DNA from: Escherichia coli
GTDB lineage: Bacteria; Pseudomonadota; Gammaproteobacteria; Enterobacterales; Enterobacteriaceae
Direction: 5' to 3' (one strand)
Assembly: GCF_002854065.1 (NCBI RefSeq)
Contig: NZ_CP024147.1
DNA: 64,000 nt
Part shown: positions 56,417 through 59,500 of the stretch, piece by piece
How positions within the stretch are numbered: position 1 is the first letter of the stretch
Layout of the letters: each line of letters starts with the position of its first letter
Made by a program: the position numbers and the translations under genes
The notes under the pieces: generated by a model
What the model saw: only the letters and a program-made list of their open reading frames with translations
Databases searched by the model: none
Told to the model about the DNA's origin: nothing

Positions 56417-57715
56417 ATGTTTAAGCCCAGGATTTGCAGCTGGATAGGTTTACTTCCCCTGTTTATGCTGAGTCTTCCAGTACAGGCGGAACTTCGATGC
56501 GTTGCAAATGCAGTTGATATTGAACCTTTTTTTTCTGCGGCTACCGCTGAAGATAAACAACAAGTTGAACAAGCTATCAACAGTAGCGTGAATCTTGTCC
56601 CCTTCGGTTTATCTGCATCGGACTGGAAAGTGCATCGTGGCGATTTAGTGGTAGAAGGTAATATAGAGAGTAATCAAAAATTGATTGTTCTTGGCAATTT
56701 GACAGTCAAAGGTAATATTTCCACTTTCTCTCTTTCTAATCCATGGGTTATTCTCGGTAACGTGACGGCAACGAATATAGTTACGGATTCACCACTGTTA
56801 ATTACCGGTTCGATAAATGCAAGTGGACTGGTATTTATCGACTCATATTACGATAATCCGTCTACGATTAAGGGGAGTATTAATGCGCGCGGGATATTTA
56901 TCAATGACATAATTGCACCTGTTGTTGCGTCTTCGACAAATAGTGAATTCATGGTCCGTGCGAGTGACAAAAATGACACTGAAAATGTCAAAAAAGCGCT
57001 GATGATAATAAATCCTGATGCATATTATTGGGGTCTAATAAATGATGAAGATGCTCTGAAAGAAATTTTTAAGCGAAGCAATATTCGCATGGCAGGGAAT
57101 GTCTGTAATCAGATGAAAAAAGAAGCGCTGTTTCGCCCTAAGCCTTCTCCTGAGTTAGTGCAGGAATTGCAAATGCTGGATGAAGGCAACGTTGCTGCAT
57201 TTGAAGGACGAGATATTGCGACATTTGATCTTGCCATAATGCGAACTCTCCCAAGGCTTAAAGGAATTTCAGCTAACCTACGCAAACAACTTATTAATAG
57301 CAATGATGGACAAACGATTGCAAGTATGGCGAGATATATGCCTGACAATGAGATTCTGGAGTTGACCGATCAGCAATTGGGTTACCAGCCTGTTGTTCTG
57401 GGGTTGCTCGACCGTGAACCGCTCTCTGTCGAAATAATGACGCGAATGAGTCATCTACCTGATGGTGTCGGTCCGTTGAATCTTGCGCTACGTGAAAATC
57501 TCCCTCTGGATATCGTCATGACTCTGGCGAAAAGAGATTGGGATATGATCATTCAGGAGCTTTATAAAGATGCGTGGTTATTGCCCGAATCCATTATTGA
57601 TGGCTATATCCGCAGTGATGATTCCTCTATTCGTCAGGTCGGTGCTGGAGGACAACTCACCTACAATCAGGCAATGCAGTTGGCGAACGATTCATCAAAC
57701 GATGTTGTCACAAGC
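56417..57715 (+). pseudogene. ydbD: ydbD N-terminal part (~433 codons), interrupted by IS1
   Basis: ORF track 56411..57742; last 9 codons (GDAANLLI-stop) are IS1-encoded; signal peptide MFKPRICSWIGLLPLFMLSLPVQA. Confidence 0.8.
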
Positions 57716-57770
57716 GGTGATGCTGCCAACTTACTGATTTAGTGTATGATGGTGTTTTTGAGGTGCTCCA

Positions 57771-58046
57771 GTGGCTTCTGTTTCTATCAGCTGTCCCTCC
57801 TGTTCAGCTACTGACGGGGTGGTGCGTAACGGCAAAAGCACTGCCGGACATCAGCGCTATCTCTGCTCTCACTGCCGTAAAACATGGCAACTGCAGTTCA
57901 CTTACACCGCTTCTCAACCCGGTACGCACCAGAAAATCATTGATATGGCCATGAATGGCGTTGGATGCCGGGCAACCGCCCGCATTATGGGCGTTGGCCT
58001 CAACACGATTTTCCGCCATTTAAAAAACTCAGGCCGCAGTCGGTAA
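57771..58046 (+). CDS. insA: IS1 InsA
   Basis: ORF track 91 aa. Confidence 0.92.
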
Positions 58047-58468
58047 CCTCGCGCATACAGCCGGGCAGTGACGTCATCGTCTGCGCGGAAATGGACGAAC
58101 AGTGGGGATACGTCGGGGCTAAATCGCGCCAGCGCTGGCTGTTTTACGCGTATGACAGTCTCCGGAAGACGGTTGTTGCGCACGTATTCGGTGAACGCAC
58201 TATGGCGACGCTGGGGCGTCTTATGAGCCTGCTGTCACCCTTTGACGTGGTGATATGGATGACGGATGGCTGGCCGCTGTATGAATCCCGCCTGAAGGGA
58301 AAGCTGCACGTAATCAGCAAGCGATATACGCAGCGAATTGAGCGGCATAACCTGAATCTGAGGCAGCACCTGGCACGGCTGGGACGGAAGTCGCTGTCGT
58401 TCTCAAAATCGGTGGAGCTGCATGACAAAGTCATCGGGCATTATCTGAACATAAAACACTATCAATAA
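57965..58468 (+). CDS. insB: IS1 InsB (variant, Ser at position 65)
   Basis: ORF track 167 aa; YDSLRKTVV versus YDRLRKTVV in copies 1 and 2. Confidence 0.9.
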
Positions 58469-58483
58469 GTTGGAGTCATTACC

Positions 58484-59500
58484 GTCACAAGCTTAGCGTT
58501 AAAGCTGGCAGAGATGAAACACCATGGTCAATTGTTGCGGATGACGCCACAAGAGAGTGACAAAATAGCAGTATATTTATACCAAAAATTCGAGAATGAC
58601 GATGATCTAATAGGTGCGTTATTTTTAGCGTTGCCAGATAACTTACAGTTTAATTTTGTTAAAAGGATGGAGAAAAAATCCCCTGCCTACTTTTGCTGTC
58701 GGGATATGCAGATAATTCACTCTGACGCTGCTTTACAACGGTTATTGACACGTTTCAACGATCCTGAGGGGTGGAGTAATCTGGCGAAAAATCAGTATCT
58801 GAGCACGTCGATGAAACAAAAAATTTGGCAACGTGCTTTATCGCATCGGAAAAATAATCCCAAAGCAGATTCAGATGCATATGAAACCAGCGCTGATATG
58901 ATTTTGTCTGAGCTTATCAGCTACGGTGAAGTTGATGACCAGATGCTATTAAATGCCACCTCTCTGATACGTTCGGACGACTGGGACTTTTTAGAGAGAG
59001 CATTAATTAGTTGGGATAATTTACCCGCTGTTGTTCTCAAGGAATTACAGCAAAACACGCCACGCAATGATATTTGGGCGAAGTTTTTTCTGAGGCAGGA
59101 AAACAGTTCCCGTGCGCAGGTTAACGAAGCGTTACGTGTTTATTATGCACTAGACCCCGATGCGTTAGCACAACTGGATGTACTGGCAAAACAACCGGAT
59201 CGTATATGGTGGAGTACACTGGCGAAAAGCAATCTCACATTTTTCAAGTTCGGCGCACTTAACAACCGCCACACACCGCCTGCGGTACTGGCGGCAGAAA
59301 TTGATCCCGAGTGGTGGATTGTGGCGATGAATAATCCCCGTTTTCCAGTTGATGTATTAAAGGCGAGGCTGAAACGTGATCCTTTGCTGGCGTTAGAGCT
59401 TGTTAACCCTGAACTGGATTTAGTTCGCCAGCTGGCGCTTAACGGTAAGACGCGCGCAATACGGGAACAAGCGATGAGAAAACTTGATGAGTTGTATTGA
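58484..59500 (+). pseudogene. ydbD: ydbD C-terminal part (~338 codons) downstream of IS1
   Basis: In-frame continuation from the target duplication; ORF track 58514..59500 covers it; the two parts together sum to the K-12 YdbD length (768 aa). Confidence 0.8.

Follow-up and report, generated by a model that had tools for sequence, protein, structure and literature searches.

Known IS1 elements, among them the iso-forms IS1A and IS1B of Escherichia coli K-12 and the IS1 of Shigella, share a length of 768 bp, imperfect 23-bp terminal inverted repeats, an insA gene, an A6C motif, the insB' frame and a target duplication of 9 bp, occasionally 8 bp in the family. We analysed the third of three IS1 copies in the window, which here means the whole 64-kb stretch of E. 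coli DNA, and compared it with these described elements. Nothing structural distinguished copy 3 from known IS1; its one peculiarity is a T at element position 444, on a backbone whose other copies in the lineage carry G. The complete element occupies 57716-58483 (768 bp, + strand) and has the same orientation as ydbD, the gene in which it lies. Its 23-bp terminal inverted repeats are imperfect, with IRL (57716-57738, + strand; GGTGATGCTGCCAACTTACTGAT) matching the reverse complement of IRR (58461-58483, + strand; ATCAATAAGTTGGAGTCATTACC) at 18 of 23 positions. A consensus scan placed a promoter-like match at 57723-57750, partly within IRL and reaching 12 nt beyond it. The insA gene (57771-58046, + strand; 91 aa) matched the Pfam families Zn_ribbon_InsA and HTH_Tnp_IS1 (PF03811, E = 3e-21; PF12759, E = 1.7e-30), and the insB frame (57965-58468, + strand), a 167-aa ORF containing the DDE catalytic part, matched DDE_Tnp_IS1 (PF03400, E = 6e-78), all three matches lying above the Pfam gathering scores. 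The -1 programmed frameshift motif AAAAAAC (A6C) was located at 58022-58028 (+ strand; IS1 position 307), within the insA/insB overlap, and is predicted to yield InsAB' by a -1 frameshift. The InsAB' transposase span of 57771-58468 (698 nt) equals the 'programmed frameshift' CDS that PGAP annotates in six complete E. coli genomes considered below (L001-L006). Compared with IS1A of MG1655, copy 3 was identical at 761 of 768 nt (99.1%). Length, inverted repeats, insA/A6C/insB' layout, 9-bp duplication and identity to the reference all agreed with the IS1 family; copy 3 is a full-length and apparently functional IS1.

The original prediction had named ydbD, intact in K-12, as the target and had described copy 3 as a simple insertion whose 9-bp target duplication is intact. 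Both points were borne out. The interrupted gene lies between pdxI and ynbA, collinear with pdxI-ydbD-ynbABC of K-12, and the rebuilt gene is equal in length to b1407 (ydbD) and 97.9% identical to it. Exact copies of the 9-mer GTCACAAGC abut the two ends of the element, the left one at 57707-57715 (codons 431-433 of ydbD, V-T-S) and the right one at 58484-58492; the 9-mer was found exactly twice in the 64-kb window, once at each end of copy 3. The duplication is exactly 9 bp, since the bases outside it differ both upstream (T vs C) and downstream (G vs T). In IS-free ydbD alleles, GTCACAAGC was single-copy at the same site, in the context GATGTT-GTCACAAGC-TTAGCG. In-silico removal of IS1 together with one copy of GTCACAAGC gave a 2307-nt ORF encoding 768 aa, with no internal stop. 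Over these 2307 nt, the rebuilt ydbD differed from the IS-free allele of K-12 MG1655 at 48 positions, from that of O157:H7 PV15-279 at 6, and from those of four other genomes (L037, L038, L039 and L041) at a single, synonymous position, while the exact rebuilt 768-aa YdbD was found on 373 public contigs. Because the IS1 is intact, 9 bp are duplicated and the target is contiguous, a combination that is the signature of simple IS1 transposition, we conclude that this is a simple insertion of IS1 into ydbD, with a probability of about 0.95; no observation spoke against the insertion as such. Following established IS1 biology, a -1 frameshift on the A6C motif would have produced the InsAB' DDE transposase, which would have joined the IS1 ends to the target, cut with a 9-bp stagger in ydbD codons 431-433, and gap repair would then have duplicated the 9-bp target.

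The two other IS1 copies in the window have different surroundings. Copy 1 (6309-7076, - strand) is flanked by a perfect 9-bp duplication, CTCTACTTC, and lies 19 nt into puuA (glutamate-putrescine ligase), in a region that proved collinear, an apparent 16-kb match there having joined a distant piece of IS1; it is a second simple gene disruption in the window, puuA::IS1. Copy 2 (32748-33515) has no target duplication, its flanks being CAACATCAG and GGTTCGTAG, and about 7.3 kb that other E. coli carry between ogt and zntB is absent at this point (the 3' end of abgT, abgB, abgA, abgR, smrA and most of dgcM). Copy 2 is the result of an IS1-mediated adjacent deletion or of IS1-by-IS1 recombination. 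Elsewhere (48999-53412), the window lacks the feaR-tynA-paa cluster that K-12 carries between ydbL and ydbA/bigA, and the bigA/ydbA autotransporter gene appears uninterrupted, while the K-12 copy is broken by IS2D and IS30C. That IS1 is multi-copy, and that copy 2 lacks a duplication and bounds a deletion, would fit the view that the ydbD element is a joint of IS1-by-IS1 recombination, or else an artefact of assembly. We regard this as exceedingly improbable, as the sequences on either side of copy 3 adjoin one another in every IS-free allele and have the 9-bp duplication in common, and both junctions were reproduced independently, including on one long-read contig.

The simple insertion splits ydbD as had been predicted, into parts of about 433 and 338 codons with a stop 9 codons into IS1. 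The 5' fragment (56417-57742, + strand) comprises 433 native codons (to 57715), followed by eight IS1 codons (GDAANLLI) and a TAG at 57740-57742. The 3' fragment (58493-59500, + strand) comprises 335 codons plus the stop, or 338 when the duplicated V-T-S codons are counted; it lacks a start codon at the junction, its first in-frame ATG being at 58514. The N-terminus of YdbD, MFKPRICSWIGLLPLFMLSLPVQA/ELR, resembles, by inspection only, a Sec signal peptide, on which feature the secreted location given in the original prediction depends; this N-terminus is kept on the 5' fragment, while the DUF2773 domain (PF10971; YdbD residues 688-768, E = 9.9e-46) now resides on the orphaned 3' fragment. The insertion would thus inactivate ydbD: the 5' fragment would yield at most a 441-aa truncated product that keeps the leader and has lost DUF2773, and the 3' fragment would be left with neither promoter nor start codon nor signal sequence. 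Some activity could persist in the N-terminal fragment of 441 aa, which is of secreted type. A consensus scan of the interval between ydbD and ynbA found no terminator-like site, making co-transcription possible, and the insertion may reduce read-through or exert some polarity on ynbABCD.

In Pfam scans of the rebuilt YdbD (56417-59500), DUF2773 was the sole domain, and the first ~690 residues had no match. PGAP names the protein 'DUF2773 domain-containing bactofilin'; our Pfam and NCBIfam scans of YdbD returned no bactofilin model, and NCBIfam gave nothing above threshold for YdbD or its fragments, only a far sub-threshold match to MinC.

The gene itself is poorly characterised; it has been described as methylglyoxal-induced and is listed with the sigma-E-induced genes (PMC2731931). 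We searched the literature on ydbD in Shigella and found nothing relevant. When the 408-nt sequence of the empty site (window 57500-57910 region) was used as a query, matches were confined to 3884 of 5426 complete E. coli genomes, indicating that ydbD is dispensable; IS1 insertions elsewhere in ydbD in at least six other strains, described below, point the same way. The gene is therefore accessory rather than core. Its loss most probably came as a neutral by-product of IS1 expansion rather than as an adaptive change. Neutrality is an assumption here, since in a Tn-seq study of K-12 in minimal glucose, mutants of ydbD and ynbB were reported to show a fitness effect despite very low (near-zero) expression (PMC5053530). 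Read in this way, the insertion lengthens by one the list of pseudogenes of an IS1-expanding E. coli/Shigella clone and matters little beyond that.

The original prediction had also called the insertion probably recent. We searched public sequences for the junctions of ydbD::IS1, among them that of AACGATGTTGTCACAAGC with GGTGATGCTGCC, and for the 441-aa product that spans the left one (P0001). The exact junction-spanning product was found on 35 public contigs and listed in 69 index blocks, one example being KEO35079.1 of E. coli 1-250-04_S3_C2. At the nucleotide level, the identical left junction was present in eight contigs (L007-L014) with 0-3 mismatches in the flanks, L010 and L012 showing 3 mismatches and 1 indel by gapped alignment. 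The right junction was present in four contigs (L018-L021). Four others (L033-L036) start 1-3 nt inside the second copy of GTCACAAGC and are free of IS1 bases, as would fit the right junction, and two PGAP partial proteins (P0019 and P0022), labelled Shigella dysenteriae or E. coli, also start inside the second repeat copy. At least 8 separate NCBI assemblies contributed junction contigs, as did an ENA metagenome and several SRA runs. In addition, a 4.74-Mb NCTC contig (L017) carries the whole ydbD'-IS1-'ydbD structure contiguously, with both junctions; compared with the window across 5.8 kb, it shows one substitution and three homopolymer indels. This contig has a further IS1 (L017 5806-6573) in the 5' part of ynbC, at the window equivalent of ~61307-61316, where the window has none. 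The extra ynbC copy, present in L017 and absent from the window, shows that the ydbD insertion is older than the split between the two, and that IS1 is still expanding within the clone. The same junction occurred in 0 of 5426 complete RefSeq E. coli genomes, and the left junction had no match among GTDB species-representative genomes.

These results indicate that the insertion was one event in the ancestor of an IS1-rich E. coli/Shigella clone, that it has been inherited since, and that it precedes the diversification of the clone. The claim of recency holds only in the sense that ydbD carries no other lesion and that the rebuilt gene is one synonymous nucleotide from IS-free alleles, so that ydbD is, judging by its sequence, undecayed since its interruption; the event is not private to the strain, the junctions being common to many assemblies. 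A very recent insertion restricted to the sequenced strain, arisen for example in culture, would agree with the perfect duplication, the intact element and the absence of secondary lesions in ydbD. It is nevertheless very improbable, given the 35 contigs and 69 index blocks with the junction product, the spread of junction contigs over NCBI assemblies, an ENA metagenome and SRA runs, and the divergence of L017, which has the same insertion and an extra IS1. Public assemblies already contain the inherited ydbD::IS1, with its pieces annotated as fragments of a pseudogene, and it is ordinary rather than novel. Absent from the 5426 complete E. coli genomes and common to many drafts, its junction is a convenient clone-specific marker.

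The top-ranked complete-genome matches were considered as carriers of the same insertion and rejected, because they proved to be IS1 at other sites in ydbD or in nearby genes. Six complete E. coli genomes (L001-L006; EC2001, A37, E1, 573, ATCC 43886 and HCP6S3_I1) have IS1 at six other ydbD positions. They resemble the window in the gene hit, in the element family and in having both halves annotated by PGAP as partial pseudogenes, of a 'polymer-forming cytoskeletal protein' and of a 'DUF2773 domain-containing protein'. They differ from it in that the six sites are all different, none being at codons 431-433, and in that some of the elements are other IS1 iso-forms (93-99.9% identity). Because the sites differ, some of them with other iso-forms, these six insertions are independent events. 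Five further contigs, two of S. flexneri (L028 and L029) and three of E. coli (L030-L032), start 10-18 nt downstream of the junction, at the window equivalents 58494 and 58500-58502, and contain no IS bases; these starts may mark independent disruptions near the same spot.

Such convergent hits raise the question of whether loss of ydbD has been selected (a pathoadaptive change) or whether this stretch of ydbD is a hot spot for IS insertion. The six other positions in complete genomes and the contig breaks 10-18 nt downstream in other backgrounds speak for one or the other, as does base composition: ydbD is AT-rich, with 43% GC compared with 50% for the window, and IS1 favours AT-rich targets. 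Three considerations weaken this reading. The median genome has about 10 IS1 places, so that across 5426 genomes a handful of hits in a dispensable 2.3-kb gene is roughly what chance would give. The nearby contig breaks hold no IS sequence. Finally, the same protein cluster includes partial fragments with starts at many different codons, from 320 to 387, and it is subject to a selection bias, as only fragments of similar length are gathered in it. We therefore consider a hot spot or selection unlikely, and equally unlikely the proposal that ydbD, and perhaps the 20 bp just downstream of the site, has been hit repeatedly and independently by IS elements in Shigella and IS-rich E. coli. If it were true, the repeated hits would point to a local IS1 target hot spot, or to selection during host adaptation to lose a sigma-E-regulated, methylglyoxal-induced envelope protein. 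Neutral loss by a single inherited insertion is our preferred reading.

We then compared the three IS1 copies of the window with one another. Copy 3 was identical to copy 1 (- strand) and to copy 2 at 767 of 768 nt. As had been stated, it differs from them by at least one nucleotide (InsB R65S), and the difference is exactly one base: at IS1 position 444 (58159, + strand), copy 3 has T (InsB S65) and copies 1 and 2 have G (InsB R65). From this difference the original prediction had concluded that copy 3 derives from a different donor copy, which does not follow, for the IS1 at the same ydbD site in L017 carries G444. The second IS1 of L017 also carries G444, making 4 of the 5 IS1 copies seen in this lineage G444. 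Another contig with the right junction, L018, reaches exactly position 444 and has G there, although a single base at a contig end inside a repeat carries little weight; none of the draft contigs that enter from the left extends beyond IS1 position 381, so that they fall short of position 444. IS1A of K-12 also has T444 but differs from copy 3 at 7 other positions. Both InsB variants are widespread in public sequences: at least 1000 contigs carry S65 (the exact copy 3 protein), and 159 carry R65.

Two histories may account for these observations. The element may have been inserted as G444 and later have changed to T in the strain of the window, through point mutation or through conversion from a T444 copy; alternatively, it may have been inserted as T444, with the L017 copy later homogenised or converted to G. 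The data fit both histories alike, and assignment of T444 to a different donor is unproven. Donation by an IS1 that already carried T444 (InsB S65), other than the type of copies 1 and 2, would explain the difference at position 444, and the abundance of S65 InsB over R65 indicates that T444 copies circulate and could sit elsewhere in the genome. Set against it are the G444 of the ydbD-resident IS1 in L017, which is the identical insertion on a contiguous contig, the G444 of the second L017 copy, the weak indication from L018 and the majority of G444 among the lineage copies, all of which a G-to-T change after insertion, by mutation or gene conversion, fits equally well or better. Such a T444 donor is possible but somewhat doubtful, and a post-insertion G-to-T change is at least as likely. 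As a caution of method, the donor cannot be inferred from one base that differs between IS copies; here the same-site copy of a relative has the other allele.

Among known systems, elements to which PGAP gives the label 'IS1-like element IS1B family' are identical in sequence to copies 1 and 2. The locus also resembles the IS-driven pseudogenisation of Shigella and IS-rich E. coli, as the three IS1 copies of the window correspond to two gene disruptions (puuA and ydbD) and one deletion (abgT to dgcM). As for Shigella itself, some of the junction-bearing fragments are labelled Shigella dysenteriae, and other carriers are labelled E. coli. Taken together, the window is an example of the usual IS1-driven genome erosion of Shigella-like lineages.
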